A stretch of DNA of 64,000 nt, taken from positions 1-64,000 of the forward strand of contig JABVCE010000029.1 of NCBI GenBank assembly GCA_014905635.1, given 5' to 3'. The stretch's first letter is position 1. Each line of letters starts with the position of its first letter. This DNA is from Scenedesmus sp. PABB004 (Eukaryota). Of the stretch, positions 33,156-46,599 are shown one piece after another. Below the pieces are notes generated by a model, which was given only the letters and a program-made list of their open reading frames with translations, had not been told where the DNA came from and made no database searches. The position numbers and the translations under genes were made by a program.

Positions 33156-33160
33156 TGTAA
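33156..33160 (+). promoter_or_regulatory. TGTAA polyadenylation signal, probably of the U-box gene
   Basis: First TGTAA downstream of the stop at 32782. Confidence 0.5.
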
Positions 33161-34719: not shown

Positions 34720-37700
34720 ATGCGGCGGGCTCGCGCGGCCGCGCTGGCGGCCGTGCTGGCGCTCGGCCTGGCGCTGGCGGCCGTCGCAGCAGCGGCGCCG
34801 GCGCCGGCGGGCGGCGCGGCGTGCGCCACGACGGCGCCGCTGCCGCCGGCGCCGGGCAACCGCAGCACCTGCGGGCCGGCCTGCCGGCAGGAGACCCTGG
34901 CCGCGCTGCGGGGCATCTTTGACGCGCTGGACGGCACGTCCTGGAACTTCACGACCTGGCTGGCGGAGGACAGCGCGGAGGCGCTCGCCGACCCGAACGC
35001 GTTTATGAGCGGCAATTGGAGCGCGACCGCCTGCGTCGCCTGCACCGACGCCGCCGGCCGGACGCAGCCGAGCTACTGCTGCTGGGAGGGCGTGTACTGC
35101 TGCGAGGAGGTGAACGCCTTCACGCTCGCCTCGGCGGCCGGCTGCGCGCGCTACGCGGTGCAGGTCCTCCAGGTGCGCGGGGGACCGGATCGCGCGGGCG
35201 CGCGCCGCGGGCGCCGCGGGCGCCGCCTGCCGCCGCGCGCGCGGCGCGGCGCTGACGCTGACACCGCCTGCCGCCTGCCGCCCGCACGCCCCCAGATGCG
35301 CTCCGGCGCGATCACGGGTCCGCTGGAGTCCATCATGGGCCACCTGGCCGCGCTGCACCGCAACGGGCTCACGCACGTCGACATGTCGCGCAACTTCCTC
35401 ACCGGCACCATCCCGCCGCGCCTCGGCGACCTCGCCCGCCTGCGCGTGCTGCTGCTCGGCTCCAACAGTGCGCGCCGCCGCGCCGCGGCGCCGCGCCGGC
35501 GGCCGACACCACGCGTGCGCGCTGCCGACCGCGCGCGCGCCCGCCGCCGCCGCCGCCGGCCGGCCGCAGACCTGACGGGCACGGTGCCGCCGTCGCTGGG
35601 GCGGCTGCTGCAGCTGCAGCAGCTCGACCTGGAGTTCAACTTTCTCACGGGCCGCCTCGACGGCGGGCAGGTCTGCGCCGACGAGCGCAGCGACCTGCAG
35701 GCCCTCTACGTGCGCGCCAACAACTTCAGCGGCCCGCTCGACCTGCGGGCCTGCCGCGCGCTCGAGGTGGCAGACGTGCAGGTGCGGCGTGCGCGCGCGG
35801 GGGCGTGCGAGCGCCTCGCGCTCGAGGGCGCGGGAGCGGCAGGGAGCGTGCTCACGCCGCCGCCGGTGCCGGCGCCCGGGCGGCGCTGCTGGTGCGGCGC
35901 AGGAGAACTACTTCAGCGGCACGCTCCCCATCGGCGCGCCCAACCGCCAGCTGAGCGTGCTGCGCGCGCGGCTGAACAACTTCAGCGGCCCGCTCGCGCC
36001 CGACGTGTGGGAGCTGCCCAACCTCATGACCCTCGACGCGACCAACAACTCCCTCACCGGCGGCCTGCCCCCGGGGTCGCCGAGCATCTTCCTCACCAAC
36101 CTCTACCTCGGCAGCAACAACCTCAGCGGACCCCTGCCCGCGGGGCTCGCGCACAGCAGCCAGCTGTCCAAGCTCGACCTCAGCGACAACGCATGGATCA
36201 CCGGCACGCTGCCAGACATGACGTGCGGCGCCGGCCGCGGCGGCCGCGGGGGCGGCGCCTGGCTGCGCGCGCCTGCAGCCAGCCAGTGCCCGCGCGCCGA
36301 GCGCGGCGCCCCGCCGGCCGCCGGCGCAGGTGGATGCTGGGCCTGCAGACGCTGATGATCGGCAACACGCGCCTCACGGGCCCCATCCCCGAGAACATGG
36401 CCGCGCTGCCCTACCTCGAGGCGCGCGCCGCGCGCGCTGTGCCGCGCCCGGCGCGCTGCGCGCCCGGCGCGCTGCAGGCGCCGCGCGGCGCGCGCCGCGC
36501 CCGTGCGCGGCGCCAGCCCGCGCCCACGCGCCCCCCGGCGCGCGCGCAGACGGTGGACATCCACAACACGCTGATGACGTGTTGCTCGAACGAGAGCGAG
36601 GCCGAGGCGCGCGCGGCGGATGGCACGCTGCTGCCGAGCTTCCTCACCTTCACCAGCCGCGTGCGCTGGCTGCCGGCCGAGGAGGTGCTCGGCCGCGACG
36701 CGACGCTCAACCGATACCTCTCCAGCGGCGCAAACATGATGTGCGCCCGGCGCCGCCGCCGCCGCCGACGGCGCCGCTGCGCATGCCGATGCTGACGCCG
36801 CCGCGCGCCGCCGCGCCGCGCCGCGCCGCCGCAGCTGCAACATGGTGCAGCGCAACCGCAGCCACCACGTGTTGAGCCACCAGGTGATGCGGCCCGCCAA
36901 CCTCTCGCGCCAGATCTGGGCGGTGTCGCCCGAATACAGCTGGTTCCGGGAGTGCGAGTGCGCGCCGGTGCGGCGGCGGCGCGCAGCGGCGGCGGCGCGC
37001 GGCGGCGGCGTGCACCGCCCCCGGCGCGGCGCGCAGCGGCGGCGGCGCGCGGCGGCGGCGTGCACCGCCCCCGGCGCGGCGCGCGGGCGCGCGGCGTGCC
37101 CACCCCGCGGCCGCGGCGCGGCGCAGGGCTTTGCTGCGAGCTGGGACGCCGACGTCGAGCGCGAGGTGTGGTGCCACAACCGGTCGAGCAGCATAGCCGA
37201 CCACTGGCGCTGCGTCAACATGAGCGTCATGGCCTGCCGGCCCAAGCCCGCGCTCACGCAGAGCGAGCTCGCGGCGATCGTGAGCGTGGTGAGCGTGGTC
37301 GTCATCCTCAGCCTCCTCATGCTCACGAGCGTGAGCCTCAACATGTGCATCGCCCGCACCGGCAAGCTGCGCCGCCAGATGGCGTGGTGGCACAAGCACC
37401 TCACCGGCATGCCAAAGGCGGGGCGCATGTCCATCGTGGTCACAGACATCGAGGGTGCGCGCGCGCGCGGGAGGTCACGCCCGCGGCCCCGCCCGCCGCG
37501 CGGCGCCCCCGCCGCCGCCGCCGCCCGCGCGCGCCTTTCGCGCTCACGCCCAGTCTCTCGCCTGCCTCTGCGCTCACGCCCGCGCGCACGCCGCGCCGCC
37601 ACGCGCGCGCCTGTGCAGGCTACTCGGACCTGTTCAAGCGCTGCCCAGAGCTCATGTACAAGGCGCTCACGCTGCACAACAACGTCATCCGAAAGGCCAA

Positions 37701-39186
37701 GTACACCAACGCCGGCAGCACCGTGCAGCAGGAGGGCGACTCATACACGTGCGCGCGGCGCGGCGCGACGCGGCGCGGGGGCGCCAGCGCGCGGGGGCCA
37801 GCGTGCGGGGGCCAGCGCGCGGCCCCGCCGGCACCGCCGCCGCCCACACGCCCGTGGCCCCGCCCACGCGCTCGCAGCCTCGTGTTCCACGACGCGTTTG
37901 ACGCCGTGAGCTTCTGCCTGCAGGTGCGCCGCGCGCGCAGCGCGCGCGGCCGCGCCGGCGGGGCGCGCGCCGCGCTCCGCGCGTTGCGTCCGCCGCGCCC
38001 GCCCACGCCCGCCCGCCCGCGCGCCCGCCGCCCCCCCCCCCCCCCGCCCCGCCCCAGGCCCAGCTCGCGCTCATGGAGGTGGCCTGGCCGGAGGGGCTGA
38101 TGGAGGGCGAGAGCGCGCCGACCAACCACAACGGCGGTGCCGGCAGCCACAGGGCCCGCAGCACGCGGCGCAAGCGTGCGTGTGGGGCGCGCCGGGGCGC
38201 GCCGGGGCGCGCCGGGGCGCGCAGGGCGCGGGGGCGCGGGGGGCGCGAGCGCGCGCGGTGCCGCGTCGCCGGCCGCGCCCCACGCGCCGCGCCGCCGCCG
38301 CCGCGCTGCGCTCGCGTCCGCAGTGGGGCAGCTGGACTCGCTGCTCGTCAACAGCGCCTGGCTGCGCAAGAGCCGGGCCGGCACGATCAAGCACAGCGGT
38401 GCGCGGCGCGCCGGCCGCGCCGGGCGCGCGCCTGGCCGCCCCGCCGCGCGGGGCCGGCGTCGCCTACCCGCCGCGCCCGCGCCCCGCGCCCGCAGGCAGC
38501 GGCAGCGCGCTCCCCGCGGGCGTTTCGTGCGAAAGCCTCGTCGGCGGCCCCGGCGCGTCGCCGCCGCCGCCCGCGGCGCGCGGCGCGGGGCTGAGCCGCG
38601 CGCGCATGCTGGACCTGTTCCGCTCCACGCCCGGCGCCGGCAGCGCGGCGGGCGTGTTCAACGGCCTGCGCGTGCGCATGGGCGTCGCCACGGGCGACGT
38701 CGAGGGGCCGCCCGAGGGTGGGGACGCGATCGCGGCCATCATGAACTCACCCCTCTACAAGCGCGCGCTCGGTGCGGGCCTACCCAGCGCCGCGCGCCGC
38801 GCGCTCGCGCCGGCCCGCGCGGGCGGCGCGCGCGCGCGTGCCGGCGCCGACGCGCGCCGCCGCCGACGCGCGCGCGCGCCGGCCACCGCGCGCGCGCGGC
38901 GCAGACGTGAGCGACGCGGGCAACGGCGGCCAGGTGCTGCTCGACGGCGCGACGTTTGTGCGCGTGAAGGAGGAGCTGCACCCGCTCGGTGCGGTCGACG
39001 CCAACGGGCTGAACTACAACAAGCTCGCCGCGCGGACGAGCCTCTGGCACCTGCTCTGCCTCGGCTCGCTCTGCGCGCGGTGCGCGCGCCGTCGCCTGCG
39101 CCCCGCGCGCGCCGCGCGCGCCGTGCCCCGCAGGCGCCGCCGCCCGTGGCCCACACCGTGCGCCGCGCCGCGCCTGCCCCCCCCCC

Positions 39187-39219
<33 letters not shown>

Positions 39220-42200
39220 GCCGCCGCAGGCGCGAGGAGCTGGGCGACAGCGACGAGGCGGTGGTGCTTGACATGGGAGAGTATCAGCCGCCAGAGGGGC
39301 GGCCGGCCAAGGCGCCGAGCCTCAACAGCCGCCGGCTCAACACGATGCTGCGGGCCAGCATGAAGATGGTTGCCTGGCACCACCCCGCGCAGCAGCTCGG
39401 CGGAAGCGGCGGCGGCGCGGCGCCCGAGCCCCCCGCGGGGCGGCCCGGCGCGGCGCCGAGCCCGAGCCCGCTGCCGCCGCCGAGCCCGCGCAGCGCGGGC
39501 AGCAGCCCGCCCGCGAGCCCCGCGGGCTGGGCCGCGCCGCCGGCGGGCGGCGGCTGGGGCGGCGGCGGCGAGGCGCTCGAGCCGACGAGCGCGCTGCCGG
39601 GCGCGATGCCAGAGCCGTGGCACCGCCCGCCCGCGGGCACCAGCAGCGGCGGCGGCGCGCCGGCCGGCGGGGAGCGCGAGCGCGTGCGGCTGGTGCAGAT
39701 CCTGTCGCCCTCCCTCGTGGGGCGCGCCCAGGTGTGGGGCAACGCGCTCAGCCTCAAGCCCAGCTGGGTCTGCACCGACGCGCCCTACTTTGACGCACCG
39801 GGTGCGGACCGCGGCGCCCGCCCGCGCGCCGCGCGGTGGGACGCCGCAGGACGCAGGCCCCCGCCCGTGCGCCGCCGACGCCCAACGCCCCGCCGCCGCC
39901 GCCGCCGTGCCTCGCCGCGCCGTGCAGGCGCGCGCGAGGCGCTGCTGGCCAACGTGCGCGTGACGCGGTCGATCAGCATGGCCAACTCGGTCACCTCGCC
40001 CCAGCCCGCGGACGGCGGCGGCGGCTCCGGCGCCAGCGACACCGACTCGGCGCACCCGCCGGGCGAGGCGAGCGCCCGCGGCCGCGGCGGCGGCGCCGAC
40101 GCGAGCACGCACGGGTGCGCTTGCGCCGCGCCGTTCGACGTCGAGGCCCCGCCCCCCACGTCGCCGCCGGCGGCGGGCGCGCCGGCGCGCGGCGGTGGCG
40201 GCGGCGGCGGCGGCGGGCTGGTCGTGGTCGGCTCGCCGCTGTCGCCGCTCGTGCCGCCGGTGACCATGGTCTTTGCGACGGTCGAGGGCGCCAAGGCGCT
40301 CGGCGGGCGGCGCAAGGCGGTGCTCAAGGAGATCCACGCCGCCCTCGCGCCGCTGCTGCTCGAGGCGCTGCGCCACGTGCGCGGCGGGTACCTCTGCCGC
40401 ATGCAGGCGCGTGGGCCCCGGCGGGGGTGGCCTGGGGCTGGAGCGGCCCGCCGCGGGCAGGGGCCGGCGGCGCGCCGCCCGAGCACGCAGCCGCGCCGCC
40501 CAAGCGTGCCCCCCCCCTCCCTCACACAGACACTCACTTGCTCACTCACTCACTCACACACTCACTCGCTCCCACCCTCACGCACTCGCTCACTCACTCA
40601 CTCACTCACGCTCCCCCCAGGAGGGTGACCTCAAGTACATGCTCGCCTTTGCATCGCCCCGCGCCGCGCTGGAGTGGGCGCTCACGGTGCAGGAGGCGGG
40701 TGCGTGCCGCGCCGCCGCCGCCGCTGCTGCCGCGCAGCCCTGCCGCGCTGCCGCGCACGGCCGCCTCCCACCGACGGGGCGCCGCTGCCCCCACTCACCC
40801 CCCCCCCCACACACACACACACACACAAACACACGCGCGCGCGCAGCGATGTACCTCAACTGGCCGGAGGACGACCGCTGGGCGCGCACCGCGCAGCTGC
40901 GCGCCGCGTACGACGCGGGGCGCCCCCGCGCGCTCGTGTTCCGCGGCCCCCGCCTCAAGATGGGCGTCTGCGAGGGCGTGCCGCGCACAGTCATCCCAGA
41001 CCACCTCGGGCGGTGCGGCGCGGGGGCTGCCGCGCGCGCGGCGCGGGGGCTGCCGCTGGCGCCGCCGCCGCGGGGGCTGCGCGGCGCGCGTCGCCCGCCC
41101 GGCCCTGCTCACGCCGCCGCCGCCGCCGCGCCGCCGCCGCCCCCTCGCGCCGCCGCGCCTGTGCGCGCCGCCGCCGCCGCCGCCAGGGCCGACTACCATG
41201 GCTCCTCGGTGCGCGCGGCGCAGCCGTCGCTGCGCAGCCGTCGCTGCGCGGCCGTCGCTGCGTGGCCGCGGTCGCCGCCCGCTCACGCGCCCGCGCTCAG
41301 GCCGCCGTCGCCGCCCGCTCACACGCCCGTGCGCGCGCCCGCCTGCGCACCCGCCCCGCAGGTCAACCAGGCTGCGCGCTACATGGACGCCGCGGCGCAC
41401 GGCGGGCAGATCGCGTGCGAGGCGTCGCTCGCGGCGGCGGTGCTGGCCGAGTGGGCGGCCGACGCGGCGCGCGCCGACAGCTGCGCCGCCGACTCGGACG
41501 CGGCGGGCTCGCCGGAGCAGCTGCGCGTGCTGTCGGCGCCGCCGGCGCCGCGCGCGGGCACGGCCGGCGCGGCGGCCGGCGGCGAGGCGGCGGCCGGCGG
41601 CGACGATGGCCCGGGCGCCGCGTGCCCGGTGTGCGGGCTGCCGCTGGACGACGACCTCGCGCAGCGCACCGGCACGAGCCGCTCCCTCGACAGCGCGATC
41701 GCGCAGCTGGGCGGCTGCGAGGCGCTGCTGCTCGCGACGCAGCCGTCGCTCACGGAGCAGGCGGGCGCGGCGGCGACGGCGACGCTGCGGCCGCGGGCGG
41801 CGGCGTCTGCCGCTGCGGCCTCGCCGCCAGGGACGACAGCATGGTCTCGGCCTTTGCGTCGGCCCCCGCGCTCGCCGCGCTGGACAGCGTCGCCGACAGC
41901 GCCCCCGCCGGCGACGGCGCGGCGCCGGTCGCGGTGCCGGCGCGCGCGGCGCGCACGGCGCCGCCGGCGGCGGCAGCAGCGCGTCGCTGGCCATCGGCAG
42001 CGCGCCCGCCGCGGGCGGCAGCAGCTTTGGCGCCACGCCGCCACGCAGCAAGCTCTTCCCTCGCTTCTTCAGCCGCGGCAACGGCAGCGGCGCGCAGCGC
42101 CCGGGCAGCGTGCTCCGGCCCGCCGGCAGCGTGCTGCACGCGGAGCGCGCGCAGCTGAGCGTCGCCGCGGCCGCGGCCGTCGCCGCAGCCGCGCCGGCGC

Positions 42201-43029
42201 CGCCGCCGCCACCGCCGCCGCCGCCGGCGCCGCCGGCACTCGTGTTTGGGCTGGCCGACCCGCCGACGCTGCCCGTGGTGGTGCAGGCGCACCACCTGGG
42301 CCTGTTCAGGTTCAAGGGCAACCCCGCGGCGCTGGAGATGGTCAACGTCATGGCGGCCGCCCTCGCCGGCCGCGCCGGCCACTTCCCGGCGGAGCCGCCC
42401 AAGGGCAAGGGCGGCCGCGTCGCGGCGCGCGACGGCCTCGCCGGCGAGGCGACCGCGGCGCTGCCCACGCTCGCCGCGCAGTACCGTGCGCGCGTGCCGG
42501 CCGCGCTGCTCGTGTCGACGCCGCCGCCCGACGCGCGCGCGGCGCTGCGGGGCGCGCTGCGCGTGAGCAGCATGCCCGCGCACTCGCGCGGCGGCCTCGC
42601 CGACGGCGGCGGCGGCGGCTCCGGCTCCGGCAGCCGCCTCGGCAGCGGCTCGCGCGCGCTCAGCTTCCTGGCCGGCCCCGCTCGCCGAGCATCCCGGAGG
42701 ACGGCGGCCTGCCGCCGGTGCTCGGCGGCGCCGGCACGCCCGGCGGCCGCGCGCGGGGCGGCAGCTGGAGCAGCGGCGGCGCGCCGGCGGGCTCTGCCAA
42801 CGCCAACGGCGACGCGCCGGCCGGCCGGGCCTGGGGCCGCGCGCACAGCGCGGTGACCGCCGACGCCGGCGGCGTCGCCGGCTGGCACGCGGCGCCGCCG
42901 GGGACGGCCCCGCCGTCGCTGCTGCCGCTCCCGCCGTTTGGCCGCCGCCGCGGCAGCAGCGACGGCGGCAGCCGGGCCAAGGCGCCGGGGCTCGAGTCGC
43001 TGCCGGACACGCGGGAGCACGCGGCGTGA
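34720..43029 (+). CDS. Single-pass receptor: signal peptide - LRR ectodomain - TM - two class III nucleotidyl cyclase domains, about 20 exons
   Basis: Signal peptide; SYCCWEGVYC cap; plant-type LRRs (VDMSRNFLTGTIP, LDLEFNFLTG, LYLGSNNLSGPLP); TM LAAIVSVVSVVVILSLLML; domain 1 SIVVTDIEG/YS...QQEGDSY...GLRVRMGVATG...GNGGQVL; domain 2 VTMVFATVEG...GGYLCRMQ/EGDLKY...FRGPRLKMGVCEG...R/ADYHGSS/VNQAARY...HGGQI...HLGLFRFKG. Frameshifts in the low-complexity 3' exon make the end approximate. Confidence 0.88.
36981..37084. repeat. Perfect 50-bp tandem duplication within an intron of the LRR-cyclase gene
   Basis: GCGCAGCGGCGGCGGCGCGCGGCGGCGGCGTGCACCGCCCCCGGCGCGGC occurs at 36981-37030 and again at 37031-37080. 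Confidence 0.92.
40531..40609. repeat. Degenerate (CTCA)n microsatellite at the 3' end of an intron
   Basis: ctcactcactcactcacacactcactcg...cactcactcactcactcacg immediately before the CCCCAG acceptor. Confidence 0.8.
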
Positions 43030-43482
43030 CGGGATCGAAACTGCAGGCTTCGCAAACCAAATTTGGAGGCCCACCCCCTCTGTGCGGGGCGCGGGCGCGC
43101 GCGCCGGCGCGCTGTGTTGCTGTGTGCTGCTGCGAGGTGTTGCCACGCCGCCTGGCCGCACCTGCGGCCCCATCGGACGAACGGCGCGGACCGAAACTCT
43201 GTACAGAATCGCACGGGGGCACACTCTTTGTGTGTGGTGTGGTGGGCAGGCCGGTCTGCGACGGGCGCGCCTGCGTATCTGTCTGCGCGCCGCCCGCGGG
43301 CGGCGCGCAGAGTGTTTATGCCAAGACGCTGCCAACGGTTGGGGCCGTTGCCGCGAGCAGCAGCATTGACTTGACGCGCGCGGCGGTGCGGCCGGACCGG
43401 CGCCCGCCCGCGCCGCGCCCAGCTGCGTTGCTCGCCGGGGCGGCGGCGGCCGCGGGGCCGCCGCCTGTGCGACCACAAGCGC

Positions 43483-44410
43483 TCACACCACGTCGCTGAT
43501 CCGCCCGCCCAGCAGCGGGCGCCGCTCGGTGCCCACCTCGTCCTGGGCCGCCGCCGCTGCGTCGGCCGCCTCGACGTCGGCCGCCACGCGCGCAGCCTCG
43601 GCCTCCGGCACGCCCGGCAGCGGGCCCAGCAGCGCCTCGGCCGGCGCCCCGCCCCCGCCCGTCCCCGGCCTCGGCCCCGGCCCGCCGCCAAAGTGCCGCG
43701 CCGCAAAGGCCCGCACCCCCGCGACGCTGTCCGGCCACGCGCGGTGCAGCGCGACCAGCGCCTCCGCGCCAGGCCGCAGCTGCAGCGCGGCGCCGCTGGC
43801 GGGGCGGCCCGGCGTCGGGCGCCACTCAAAGAGGCCGAACGCCTGGTTGAAGCCGTGGTGCCTGCGGCGCGGCGGCGGGGCGGGCGCGGGCGCGGTCGGC
43901 GACGAGCCTCCTCCCTGCCGCGCCGCGCCGCGCGTGCTGTGCGCGCCAGGCCGACGCCGGCAGGCCGCGCGCGTGGTGCGTGCGCGCGGGCGTGGCGGGG
44001 CGCCCCACCACTCGATGTTGTCCAGCAGCGTCCTGCAAGCAGCGGCGGGGCGCGCCAGGGGCGGGTGGCAGGCGCCGCGCCGCGCCGCGTGCGGCCGCGC
44101 CGCCGCCGCGGACCAGTAATAGGCGCCGCGCACGTCGACGCCGTCGGCGATGGCGCGCAGGATCTGCGGGCGGCGCCCGGGCGGCCGTGCGCACCCCGCC
44201 CCGCCGTGCCCCGCCGTGCCGCGCCACGCGGCGCGCGCGGCACCTCGTTGTAATAGGTCGCGATGCACCGCTCGCGCATCACGTGGCGCGCGTCGCTCAC
44301 GCCCGTCTCGGTCACGAGCAGCGGCACGCGCAGCGCGGCGTGCGCGGCCAGCAGGTGCGCGTGCAGGTCGGAGGCGACCAGCGGCATGCCCATGTCTGCC
44401 CAAGGCCGGC

Positions 44411-44444
<34 letters not shown>

Positions 44445-46599
44445 GGCGCGCGCTGCGCCGTCAGCATGCCGCGCGCCGGCGAGGGGAGGGGGGGGGGGCG
44501 CTCGTGCGCCGCACACCCACCCGTGAGCGGCTCGGCGGGGCCCGTGCCGGTCAGGCGGAAGCGGCCGTCGATTGCGGGCCTGGCGGGGGAGGGCGGGGCG
44601 TGGGCGCGCGCGCGCGCGCGCCCGGCTGCCTGCGCCCGCCCCTGCACGCGCGCGTGTGCGGGGCGGCAGCCCCCACCGTGAGTAGTAGTTCACACCCAGG
44701 AAGTCCAGCGCGCCCGCGGTGTCCGGCAGCGCGACGCGCAGCACCTCGCCGCGCAGCGGCGCGCGCCACGCAAACTCGCCCGTGGACAGGGCGGCCAGCG
44801 TGGCGTCGGTGGCAAACCAATAGGTCATCCACCGGCACAGCGGCCTGGGTTCGCGGGGCGGGAAGAGTTGAGTGCCGTGCCGCTGCTGGCGCGCGGGCAC
44901 AGGCCACGAGTGGCGCCGCGGCCGGCGGGCGCGGCGACGGCTGGGGCGTGCGGCGCGCGGCGCGGGCGTGGCGGCATGCGGGGGGCGGCATGTGTGGCGG
45001 CGGCGGGCGCGCACGCGACGAGCAGGCGCGACAGGGGGTTGCAGTCGGGCGTCGGCACGAAGCGGATGAACTGGTGCACCAGCCCCACCTGGCCGCGCGC
45101 GCAGGCGCGGCGCACGGGGTCGGCAAGGGTCGACAGGGCGCAGCTGGCCGCGGCGGGGCGCGCGGCGCGCCCCCGCCGCGGCCGCGGCCGCGCCTGCGCG
45201 GCGTCGCCGCCGGGCATGGCCTTGATGGCTCGGTACGCGGCGCCGTGCGCGGCGAGCATGTGGGCCAGCACGCGCCCCGCCTTGGCAAAGCGGCAGCGCT
45301 GCCCCGGCGCCCAGAGGCCCCTGGCCGGGGCGGGGCGCGCAACGCGCAGCGCGCGGGCTCGTGTGGGCTCGCGCGCCGCGGCGGCGACCGCGCGCGCGCG
45401 CGCCCACGTGGCGCCCCCCCCCCCCCCCGCGCACATGATGTGCCCGCACAGCGCGTAGCAGGAGGGCTCGTTGAAGGTCGCCCACGTGGGCACGCGGGCG
45501 CCAAAGTGCGTGAACGCGAGCGCCGCGTAGCTCACAAACTCGGCCACGCTCCCCGGCGCGTCCCAGCCGCCGACTTCCTCCTCGAACCAGGTCGGGTGCG
45601 TGAAATGGTGCAGCGTGACAAACGGCGCGAGCCCCGCTGCATCGCAGGCGTCCAGGATCGCGTGATACCTGTGCCGCGGGCGGGGGCGGGCCCGGCGGAA
45701 AGCGGGCCCCACCGGTGAGGCCTCGGGGGCGGAGGCTGAGCTGCCGCCGGCGCCGCGGCCGGCAGGCGGTGCGCGCTGCGCGCCGCGCTCGCCAGCAGCT
45801 CGGGCGGCGGGCGCCGCGCGCGCGCGCGCGCCTGGCAATCGCGGCCGCGTCGACCTGCCCGCGGCGCGGCACGATGCGCGCCCACTCGAGCGAGAGGCGC
45901 AGCGCATTGCAGCCGAGCGAGGCCGCCAGCTGCACGTCGGCCTCGTAGTGCGTCCAAAAGTCGTTGGAGCTGCGCGGCGACGCGCAGGGAGAGGAGGGTT
46001 GAGAGCGGTGAGCAGCGCGCGGCCGCGCGCCGAGGCTGCGGCGCGCCCGGCGCGCGCAGCGAGGCTGCGACGCACGTCTCGAACGCGTCCGGCGGCTGGC
46101 CGAAGAAGCGGCGGCGGCGCATGAAGGCCGTCCAGTTGCTGCCCTCGTCCGGCGACGACTGCCACACTGGCACGCGCGGCCGCGGCGCGGCGGCGTCGCT
46201 GGCGGGCGCACCGAGGGGCGAGCGAGCGGCGCGGCCGCCGCCCCGGCCGCCACGCCCACCAGAGATCGCCACGCCCTTGTGGAACAGGTCGCCTCGGTCG
46301 GGCGGCGCCGGCGCGGGCGCAGCAGCGGCGGCGCCCGTGCCGGTGCCGGCGGCGCCGCCGCCGCTCCCCGGCATCGCTGCTGCTGCTGCTGCTGCTGCTG
46401 CCGAGCGCAGGCGCTGGGGTCCGCGGGGGCGCGCTGATGCCGCTGCCAGCGCAGCACGCGCGGGCGGCGGCGCGCGGGCGAGCAGCGGGCGCATGAACGG
46501 CGCGCGCTGGGCGGCGGCGGGGACGGCGCTGCGGTTGGCGGTTGCGGCGGTTGTGATCGCGCGCGTCACCGGCGCTGGAGTGAGCCGCGCCGCCGCCAT
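43483..46599 (-). CDS. Glycoside hydrolase family 1 beta-glucosidase, about 12 exons; start codon uncertain
   Basis: NDFWTHYEADV, RLSLEWARI, VTLHHFTHP, acid/base TFNEP, LDFLGVNYY, nucleophile VTETG and GAYYW/TLLDNIEW. Confidence 0.93.

Follow-up and report, generated by a model that had tools for sequence, protein, structure and literature searches.

The putative receptor-cyclase locus

We analysed a stretch of 64,000 nucleotides from Scenedesmus sp. PABB004 (contig JABVCE010000029.1, positions 1 to 64,000, here called the window) and describe a gene within it that is predicted to encode a cell-surface receptor with leucine-rich repeats (LRRs), a single transmembrane (TM) helix and two class III cyclase-homology domains (CHD1 and CHD2). 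The gene lies on the + strand between an ATG at 34720 and a stop codon ending at 43029, and our model, obtained by dynamic programming (DP), divides it into 23 exons and 22 introns coding for about 1631 residues. The first-pass annotation, made from the sequence alone, had placed it at 34720..43029, and these limits coincide with the start and the stop of the best DP model. No second copy of the gene was found elsewhere in the window.

The base composition of 74-82% GC across the whole 64-kb window leaves every frame open over long stretches, so the raw open reading frames (ORFs) are uninformative. The periodicity of GC content over codon positions, strong within the coding blocks, delineated about two dozen short blocks from 34.7 to 42.7 kb of the + strand. 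For the DP model, a codon table and splice matrices were trained on the window, and the result was then corrected with homologue alignments. Nineteen of the 22 introns start with GTGC and 21 end with CAG. The features of the gene are listed with the evidence for each in brackets; slashes within motifs mark exon boundaries.

34720..43029, + strand: whole coding region, 23 exons (DP model, colinear tblastn, BLASTP of the spliced product)
34720..35172, + strand: exon 1, signal peptide (34720-34809) and Cys-rich N-cap CCWEGVYCC (hydrophobic segment, consensus CxWxGVxCC, tblastn)
35296..36438, + strand: exons 2-5 (35296-35467, 35570-35781, 35903-36222, 36330-36438), plant-type LRR solenoid (Pfam, LRR pattern, PDB profile)
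36550..37267, + strand: exons 6 and 7 (36550-36740, 36835-36967) and the first part of exon 8, Cys-rich membrane-proximal stalk (translation, family consensus, tblastn of homologue P0021)
37268..37333, + strand: single TM helix, residues 578-599, within exon 8 (37127-37454) (hydrophobicity)
37415..39716, + strand: CHD1, C1-like, residues about 627-960 (CHD hidden Markov model (HMM), hhalign)
CHD1 exons, + strand: end of exon 8; 37619-37748, 37878-37923, 38058-38136, 38324-38398, 38496-38771, 38905-39079, 39230-39368, 39675-39801
39928..40406, + strand: exon 17, low-complexity linker followed by the start of CHD2 (VTMVFATVEG ... GGYLCRMQ) (tblastn, sequence read directly)
40260..42364, + strand: CHD2, C2-like, residues about 1100-1490 (CHD HMM, hhalign, identity to homologue P0031)
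CHD2 exons, + strand: end of exon 17; 40621-40699, 40847-41012, 41187-41208, 41362-41804 and the first part of 42049-42717
42049..43029, + strand: last exons (42049-42717, 42957-43029), end of CHD2, PPKGKG (42395-42415) and low-complexity tail (YRARVP, 3' scoring)
37436-37620, + strand: VVTDIEG, across a splice site
37726-37746, + strand: QQEGDSY
38744-38933, + strand: NSPLYKRAL/DVSDAGNGGQ
40269-40289, + strand: VFATVEG
41008-41382, + strand: GR/ADYHGSS/VNQAARY, the middle part being a 22-nt micro-exon

Six full-length homologues from Volvox, Gonium, Chlamydomonas, Dunaliella, Tetradesmus and Monoraphidium gave tblastn matches that are colinear between exons 1 and 22, fall on 18 of the 23 exons and span the LRR, TM, CHD1 and CHD2 parts. 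The family consensus is the only backing for exons 11 and 20. Exons 12 (38324-38398), 15 (39230-39368) and 23, the acceptor at 42049 and the last intron are weakly backed; that acceptor, the intron 42718-42956 and the stop come from the model only. We regard the 3' end as the least certain part of the gene model. In the best 3' model, the stop at 43029 scores 40.1 against -8.4 for reading through to a stop at 42856, which is a far worse score, yet the shorter end may still be the true one.

Several splice sites could be fixed by comparison with relatives. The junction of exons 9 and 10 is confirmed because both exons are uninterrupted in P0001, P0002 and P0006, three of the seven short relatives of exon 9 (85-97% identity overall), which are contiguous there. 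An intron of the GC-AG type occupies 40407-40620, where the tblastn high-scoring segment pairs (HSPs) of five of the six homologues end exactly at 40406 and resume at 40618. The first model had used a GT donor at 40377, which would delete strand 2 of CHD2; we preferred the GC donor at 40407, as the homologue HSPs reach 40406. This donor, GCGCGT, equals the local GTGCG consensus except for the change of T to C, and a (CACT)n microsatellite with about 20 repeat units lies within the intron (40531-40609). A strong-looking donor at 42486 was rejected in favour of read-through, since the conserved YRARVP spans its GT. A 24-nt mini-exon at 39134-39157 was likewise dropped; the acceptor at 39675 is backed by homologue HSPs.

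The micro-exon at 41187-41208 deserves separate mention. Its 22 nucleotides encode ADYHGSS, including the purine-specifying Asp1232, and it lacks a BLAST match because it is too short. When the exons are joined, the product PDHLGRADYHGSSVNQAARYMDAAAHGGQ agrees exactly in its spacing with the family consensus PDHxGRADYHGxxVNxAARxMDAAAHGGQ. Automatic annotation could easily overlook this exon, and the product would then look catalytically dead.

LRRs and cyclase domains on one predicted polypeptide

The first-pass annotation had read the LRR and the cyclase parts as one gene, and this is borne out by the continuity of exon 8, by colinear homologues and by a transcript-derived relative that contains both parts. 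Exon 8 alone encodes the end of the stalk, the TM helix and strand 1 of CHD1 (MSIVVTDIE). In BLASTP searches the spliced protein aligns over residues 46-999 with the Volvox africanus protein GLI65643.1 (P0031; E 1.6e-101), and its residues 1097-1268 match CHD2 of the same protein with 57% identity (E 7e-56). A single HSP with P0165 from Tetradesmus obliquus covers residues 105-1261. The match to P0161 extends over residues 47-998 and 1088-1276; P0161 is a protein from a transcriptome assembly of Dunaliella tertiolecta in which Pfam detects two stretches of PF00211 as well as LRRs. The 1038-residue homologue P0067 likewise combines LRRs with a TM helix and both CHDs.

Two adjacent genes, one for an LRR protein and one for a cyclase, might have been joined wrongly in our model and in the annotations of the relatives. 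The gene structure in the window is a computed one, and most relatives are computational gene models as well. However, exon 8 is one open stretch running from the Cys-rich ectodomain through the TM helix into strand 1 of CHD1, the transcript-derived P0161 spans the LRRs to CHD2, P0067 joins the same parts, and a separate cyclase gene would begin at the TM helix without a start of its own. We consider such a false fusion highly improbable.

Ectodomain and membrane topology

The signal peptide, plant-type LRRs, Cys-rich juxtamembrane segment and single TM helix reported in the first pass are all present on the + strand, as judged by hydrophobicity, Pfam and translation. A hydrophobic segment at residues 4-30 forms the signal peptide, which would be cleaved off. 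Nine matches to the 24-residue plant-type LRR pattern fall within residues 176-415, and the ectodomain is predicted to hold about ten such repeats (at least 9). Pfam finds LRR_1, LRR_4 and LRR_8 in raw ORFs and in exons 2-4, with 36.5 bits for LRR_1 in exon 4. The stalk follows a family consensus, MxCP...DPxYYxYxGCxCxxG. Besides the signal peptide, the sole hydrophobic segment covers residues 572-606 with the TM helix at 578-599, from which a basic linker of about 27 residues leads to CHD1.

An extracellular position of the LRRs is suggested by several lines of evidence in addition to the signal peptide and the TM helix. The 576-residue ectodomain contains 20 Cys residues and 13 NxS/T sites, compared with one NxS/T site in the 963-residue cytosolic part. 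The best PDB matches of the family profile are the ectodomains of the plant LRR receptor kinases GSO1, FLS2 and HAESA (E down to 6e-204). We also used an AlphaFold2 model of P0067 (1038 residues, alignment of 26 sequences, mean pLDDT 76.9, pTM 0.54). Its ectodomain matches TDR, PSKR1, MIK2, HAESA and FLS2 at Z-scores of 27-29, the superposition on TDR giving a Z-score of 29.1 and an r.m.s.d. of 2.1 over 290 residues.

Two class III cyclase-homology domains

Sequence comparison identifies two class III CHDs in the cytosolic part. We built the CHD HMM from canonical algal domains verified with PF00211 and from nine bacterial CHDs (PF00211 search, Sinorhizobium pSymA). It matches the spliced protein with 157.5 bits in total, in pieces at residues 627-727 (66.9 bits), 802-879 (19.7 bits) and 1100-1263 (66.8 bits). 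The canonical algal domains had been found through a window exon, and the bacterial CHDs alone serve as the independent check. By hhalign, the family profiles align to the bacterial CHDs with a probability of 94.4% for CHD1 (E 9e-8) and 86.7% for CHD2 (E 4e-6). A profile of only the bacterial CHDs gave 5.5 to 7.4 bits, and the 7.4 bits of the cytosolic part were reached by none of 1000 shuffled sequences.

The search with a profile of exon 9 and its relatives against 1.84 billion proteins returned 328 proteins at E up to 1e-3. Among 21 long homologues scanned with Pfam, PF00211 is present in 16; of these, 12 exceed the curated cut-off and 8 have LRR families as well. Four of the 21 (P0038, P0086, P0143 and P0149) are canonical multi-CHD proteins with PF00211 scores of 155-319 bits, and both CHDs of the window protein match their CHDs by BLASTP at E 1e-10 to 1e-17 (small database). 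A language-model search with the cytosolic part of a homologue placed 29 of 30 matches in PF00211 clusters (score 0.96). Other searches were negative: Pfam found no PF00211 in the seven short relatives of exon 9, phmmer against the PDB with read-through translations of CHD1 exons 9-10 and of the CHD2 exons returned low-complexity noise or nothing, a word-based homology search with the TM exon 8 gave 200 candidates of which none scored, and a scan of metagenome contigs with the exon-9 alignment gave 141 pattern matches of which none was confirmed.

In the model of P0067, CHD1 superimposes on the Trypanosoma brucei adenylyl cyclase 1FX4 with a Z-score of 24.1 and an r.m.s.d. of 3.1, aligning 207 of 231 residues. 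CHD2 is matched by Rv1900c (1YBT; Z-score 18.7, r.m.s.d. 2.4, 166 residues), CyaB (Z-score 18.7), Cya2 (Z-score 18.6) and Chlamydomonas CYG12. By sequence, the closest solved CHD to the homologue P0064 is that of T. brucei GRESAG4.3/4.1 (E 2.5e-4). In the window protein, CHD2 holds an insert of about 190 residues that is not conserved, and its last strands, FRFKGNP, are conserved. The PPKGKG motif (42395-42415) that follows these strands is kept in most relatives; we know of no function for it.

A complementary split of catalytic residues

We mapped six canonical positions through the CHD HMM, and the Lys position of CHD2 also through a MAFFT alignment; their roles follow established knowledge of class III cyclases. 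The residues of the window protein are the following.

37445..37447, + strand: Asp637, first metal-binding Asp of CHD1 (HMM position 19)
37738..37740, + strand: Asp680, second metal-binding Asp of CHD1 (HMM position 62)
40278..40280, + strand: Thr1106, in place of the first metal-binding Asp in CHD2 (HMM position 19)
40398..40400, + strand: Arg1146, at the purine-binding Lys position of CHD2 (HMM position 58, MAFFT)
41191-41193, + strand: Asp1232, purine-specifying residue of CHD2 (within the micro-exon 41187..41208)
41365..41379, + strand: Asn1239 (41365-41367) and Arg1243 (41377-41379), transition-state pair of CHD2 (HMM positions 145 and 149)

CHD1 has Gln676 at the Lys position and Lys838 and Asp842 at the Asn and Arg positions; CHD2 keeps the second metal-binding Asp as Asp1151. 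The first pass had described domain 1 as retaining both metal-binding aspartates without an N-x3-R motif, and domain 2 as having lost the first Asp while keeping VNQAAR and an Asp in RADYHG. Both descriptions agree with the mapped residues. We extended the comparison to 48 sequences, namely the window protein and every fetched relative of at least 900 residues, leaving out the four canonical multi-CHD proteins, P0137 (a RING finger plus a CHD) and the fungal P0192.

First metal-binding Asp: CHD1, Asp in 45 of 48 (2 not aligned, 1 Ala); CHD2, Asp in 1 of 27 aligned
Second metal-binding Asp: CHD1, Asp in 46 of 48; CHD2, Asp in 20 of 37
Lys position: CHD1, Glu in 32 of 48 (Gln in the window protein); CHD2, Arg in 27 of 32 aligned, Gln in 3, Lys in 2
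Purine-specifying Asp: CHD1, mostly unaligned; CHD2, Asp in 41 of 46
Transition-state Asn: CHD1, 0 of 44 aligned; CHD2, 43 of 46
Transition-state Arg: CHD1, 0 of 44 aligned; CHD2, 46 of 46

The C1/C2-like division of residues noted in the first pass is thus present in the window protein and conserved over the 48 sequences. The sequences show the architecture, the CHD homology and the conservation of the complementary residues across the family. These counts describe one composite site that is kept and a symmetric one that drifts, which argues for an active enzyme in which CHD1 works with CHD2. To us this split is the strongest argument for both activity and cooperation of the domains.

The same residues bear on the notion of a pseudo-enzyme, in which decayed tandem CHDs would serve as a scaffold or a nucleotide sensor downstream of the LRRs. 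Each CHD alone is catalytically incomplete, the Lys position is non-canonical, both domains carry long inserts and the Pfam score is marginal. What has been retained, however, is exactly the set of residues that one composite site needs, and it is retained across Chlamydomonadales and Sphaeropleales, whereas the residues of the symmetric second site are free to vary. Random decay would produce no such pattern, and we judge a pseudo-enzyme quite improbable.

Probable substrate and geometry of the proposed active site

Guanylyl cyclases carry Cys, Ser, Thr or Gly at the purine-specifying position, where an Asp reads the N6 amino group of adenine. A guanylyl or dual-specificity cyclase of the same architecture, making the receptor a source of cGMP, would fit the absence of the adenylyl-cyclase Lys: of the 32 aligned CHD2 sequences, 27 have Arg there, 3 Gln and only 2 Lys. 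The modelled CHD2 of P0067 fits guanylyl and adenylyl cyclase structures to the same degree (Cya2, Z-score 18.6, against CyaB, 18.7), and relatives bear the label 'Guanylate cyclase domain-containing', which merely echoes the Pfam family name. On the other hand, 41 of 46 sequences have Asp where guanylyl cyclases have Cys, Ser, Thr or Gly, Glu is absent from the Lys position in all 32 aligned CHD2 sequences, and by both sequence and fold the closest solved CHD belongs to an adenylyl cyclase, GRESAG4 of T. brucei. Neither a Glu nor a Cys of the guanylyl-cyclase type was seen at the purine positions of CHD2. Production of cGMP appears unlikely to us, with the qualification that the change from Lys to Arg leaves cAMP versus cGMP undecided at the level of sequence.

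A further alternative concerns which domains meet. In dimerised receptors, CHD1 might pair with CHD2 of the other chain to give two swapped sites per dimer, and the composite site could equally form in this way between the chains of a ligand-induced dimer. Trypanosome adenylyl cyclases and animal receptor guanylyl cyclases function as dimers, ligand-induced oligomerisation underlies signalling by plant LRR receptors, and the linker between CHD1 and CHD2, about 140 residues of which some 90 are of low complexity (residues 1001-1090), would permit either geometry. Nothing in our analysis separates the two. Membrane adenylyl cyclases and soluble adenylyl cyclase, the known tandem-CHD enzymes, nevertheless pair within one chain, and the conserved segment LRLYQILxPxL...YFxAPG between the CHDs suggests a fixed intramolecular packing. 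An inter-chain site seems unlikely to us.

We consider it likely that the protein is a single-pass type I receptor whose tandem complementary CHDs form one composite C1/C2-like site, with ATP as the more likely substrate. In this model, CHD1 would supply the metal-binding Asp637 and Asp680, having lost the transition-state Asn and Arg. CHD2, which has lost the first Asp (Thr1106), would contribute the pair Asn1239 and Arg1243, together with Asp1232 as the purine-specifying residue and Arg1146 in place of Lys. The two domains would most likely pack head to tail like mammalian C1 and C2, giving one active site and one degenerate pocket. The product would probably be cAMP, given the conserved adenine-reading Asp and the lack of a residue of the guanylyl-cyclase type. 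We further propose that a ligand bound to the LRR solenoid would change the oligomeric state or the geometry of the short linker between the TM helix and CHD1, which would alter the fit between CHD1 and CHD2 and with it the single active site. Pairing, catalysis, preference for ATP and control by ligand are what we infer from the residues and the architecture.

A number of observations weigh against this interpretation. The purine-binding Lys is replaced, in CHD2 by Arg together with a one-residue insertion and in CHD1 by Gln, so the substrate cannot be read off the sequence. Long, non-conserved inserts of low complexity interrupt both CHDs. The structural evidence comes from P0067, which is only 28-32% identical to the window protein, and the full-length fold search with P0067, in which LRR proteins fill most of the listed matches, had no single chain with tandem CHDs (soluble or membrane adenylyl cyclase) among the 50 matches listed. 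As for the gene itself, the single-gene reading comes from the DP model and the homologues and refers to a predicted transcript; five of the 23 exons (11, 12, 15, 20 and 23) lack a tblastn HSP from the six homologues, and the donors at 39369 and 41805 are weak.

Pfam, finally, detects only LRR families in the window, with PF00211 in none of 10 raw ORFs and none of 20 single exons, because each CHD is split into small exons. PF00211 also misses the closest named relatives P0165, P0166 and P0171 (Tetradesmus, Monoraphidium) even at E up to 1, and these failures together place the family at the edge of the Pfam model. The profile check suggested in the first pass thus had a divided outcome: the LRRs were found, PF00211 of Pfam failed on ORFs and exons, and the CHD HMM detected both CHDs of the spliced protein. 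Because PF00211 misses the closest relatives, domain-based surveys will undercount this family of receptor cyclases.

Distribution and diversity of the family

Relatives occur in Volvox africanus, Gonium pectorale, Chlamydomonas eustigma, Chlamydomonas sp. UWO 241, Dunaliella salina and D. tertiolecta, as well as in Tetradesmus obliquus, Monoraphidium minutum, Raphidocelis subcapitata, Scenedesmus sp. PABB004 and Hariotina reticulata, and a more distant one was found in a pedinophyte. For 45 relatives with precomputed families, LRRs are recorded in 38, PF00211 in 27 and both in 20, one of the 20 being the fungal P0192. Nearly all are named 'hypothetical', 'unnamed' or 'Guanylate cyclase domain-containing', a few carry ill-fitting automatic labels, and no source name points to a studied function. 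One Raphidocelis relative, for example, bears the label 'inactive leucine-rich repeat receptor kinase-like'. Neither Chlamydomonas reinhardtii nor Volvox carteri is represented among these 45 proteins, which does not prove that the two species lack the family.

Conservation is much higher in the catalytic domains than in the ectodomain. Identity in CHD2 reaches 58% over the whole domain (Monoraphidium) and 79% over its second half with P0021, compared with about 30-37% in the ectodomain. Judged from sequence, conserved catalytic domains and a variable ectodomain would be the pattern of diversifying receptors. A tree of CHD2 left the place of the window protein within the family unresolved. C. 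eustigma has seven listed relatives, three of which (P0160, P0064 and P0164, with the neighbouring gene numbers g2027, g2029 and g2025) lie on one 1.02-Mb contig, suggesting a tandem array; four more paralogues are found elsewhere in that genome.

Scenedesmus sp. PABB004 itself encodes a second type of protein, P0076 (KAF8071314.1), annotated as 'serine/threonine-protein kinase/receptor', in which a tandem-CHD module with the same complementary residues follows a PAN ectodomain instead of LRRs. The tandem cyclase module thus seems to have been combined with different sensors.

Comparison with known receptors and cyclases

The receptor adenylyl cyclases of T. brucei (GRESAG4.1/4.3, ESAG4; 1FX2, 1FX4) resemble the algal protein in being single-pass type I proteins with an extracellular sensor and an intracellular CHD. 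They also share the long insertion after helix 3, around a W...P motif, and are the closest CHD subtype by sequence and fold. They differ in having one CHD, which homodimerises to form two equivalent sites, whereas the algal protein has two complementary CHDs per chain. Their ectodomain resembles a periplasmic binding protein, in contrast to the plant-type LRR solenoid of the alga.

Two CHDs per chain with divided labour, C1-like and then C2-like, are found in mammalian membrane adenylyl cyclases and in soluble ADCY10. The membrane enzymes have two blocks of six TM helices where the algal protein has one TM helix and an LRR ectodomain, and ADCY10 is soluble where the algal protein is anchored by its TM helix. 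Unlike the mammalian enzymes, the algal protein has Arg for the purine-binding Lys, and its CHD subtype is nearer to trypanosome and microbial enzymes.

Animal receptor guanylyl cyclases such as the natriuretic peptide receptor GC-A are likewise single-pass proteins with an extracellular ligand domain and a class III cyclase inside. They consist of an ANF-receptor ectodomain, a kinase-homology domain and one homodimerising CHD. Their specificity residue is Cys, unlike the Asp of the algal protein, and Pfam detected no kinase-like domain in the window ORFs, the exons or the 21 homologues scanned.

With plant LRR receptor kinases (TDR/PXY, HAESA, PSKR1, FLS2, BRI1 and GSO1) the algal protein shares the signal peptide, the LRR ectodomain and the single TM helix, but its output is a tandem cyclase filling the cytosolic part and not a protein kinase. 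The 'moonlighting' guanylyl or adenylyl cyclase centres claimed for plant kinase domains consist of short motifs and do not amount to CHDs.

LRRs and a class III CHD on one chain are also known from fungal Cyr1/CyaA, in which cytosolic LRRs (a Ras/peptidoglycan sensor) precede a PP2C domain and one CHD, without signal peptide or TM helix. The algal protein differs by its signal peptide and TM helix and by its two CHDs, and Pfam gave no PP2C match in the window ORFs or exons. The Cyr1-type P0192 from Trichoderma was the weakest match of the family search (E 2.4e-11).

Surroundings of the gene

Downstream, a long open frame on the - strand (42663-46565) has a weak match to Glyco_hydro_1 (PF00232, 22.6 bits, at the cut-off). 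It is probably a multi-exon gene for a GH1 beta-glucosidase-like protein, lying tail to tail with the cyclase gene. A scan of the + strand found no TGTAA, which we take to be the chlorophycean poly(A) signal, inside the cyclase gene; the only two nearby are at 33156, about 1.6 kb upstream of the start, and at 44249, about 1.2 kb downstream of the stop. The absence of this signal from the gene is in line with its continuity.

Implications

By its predicted domains the gene belongs to the receptor-type class III cyclases, which are known with binding-protein ectodomains in trypanosomes and with ANF-receptor ectodomains in animals, plant-type LRR ectodomains being known with kinase outputs. The family described here unites a plant-type sensor with a mammalian-style C1/C2 core on a single-pass chain. 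The first-pass annotation did not know this architecture as characterised in green algae. Databases, however, already contain proteins of this architecture from at least 11 chlorophycean species, under names such as 'hypothetical' or 'Guanylate cyclase domain-containing'. In the literature we found no description of a tandem-CHD receptor with extracellular LRRs, the Chlamydomonas genome paper's account of cyclase partners lying outside the scope of this statement. The word 'cyclase' is absent from a survey of chlorophyte receptor kinases (PMC12757656) and from a study on plant pattern-recognition receptors (bioRxiv 10.1101/2023.07.04.547604). The sequences were already public, and the novelty lies in recognising the family and its C1/C2 logic.

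One study reports that LRR receptor kinases were found in none of five green-algal genomes, those of Chlamydomonas reinhardtii and Volvox carteri among them (PMC5296948), and according to another the cyclase of Chlamydomonas mating has so far been assigned only tentatively (PMC9561859). If our interpretation is true, the family would allow a single protein of green algae to link an extracellular ligand to a cyclic nucleotide, and its members would be candidates for receptor-controlled cAMP production, for instance in mating. The cytosolic module is small, and the modular design invites the construction of chimeric receptors.

We tentatively raise the wider possibility that these proteins form an undescribed class of chlorophycean receptors, with LRR ectodomains (and in one case a PAN ectodomain) wired to a C1/C2-type tandem cyclase, as a counterpart of the LRR kinases of land plants. 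If so, the conserved substitution of Arg for Lys, together with the degeneracy of the second pocket, would be the sign of a new specificity or mode of regulation among class III cyclases, and peptide, cell-wall, mating or microbial cues would be converted into cAMP within one polypeptide.

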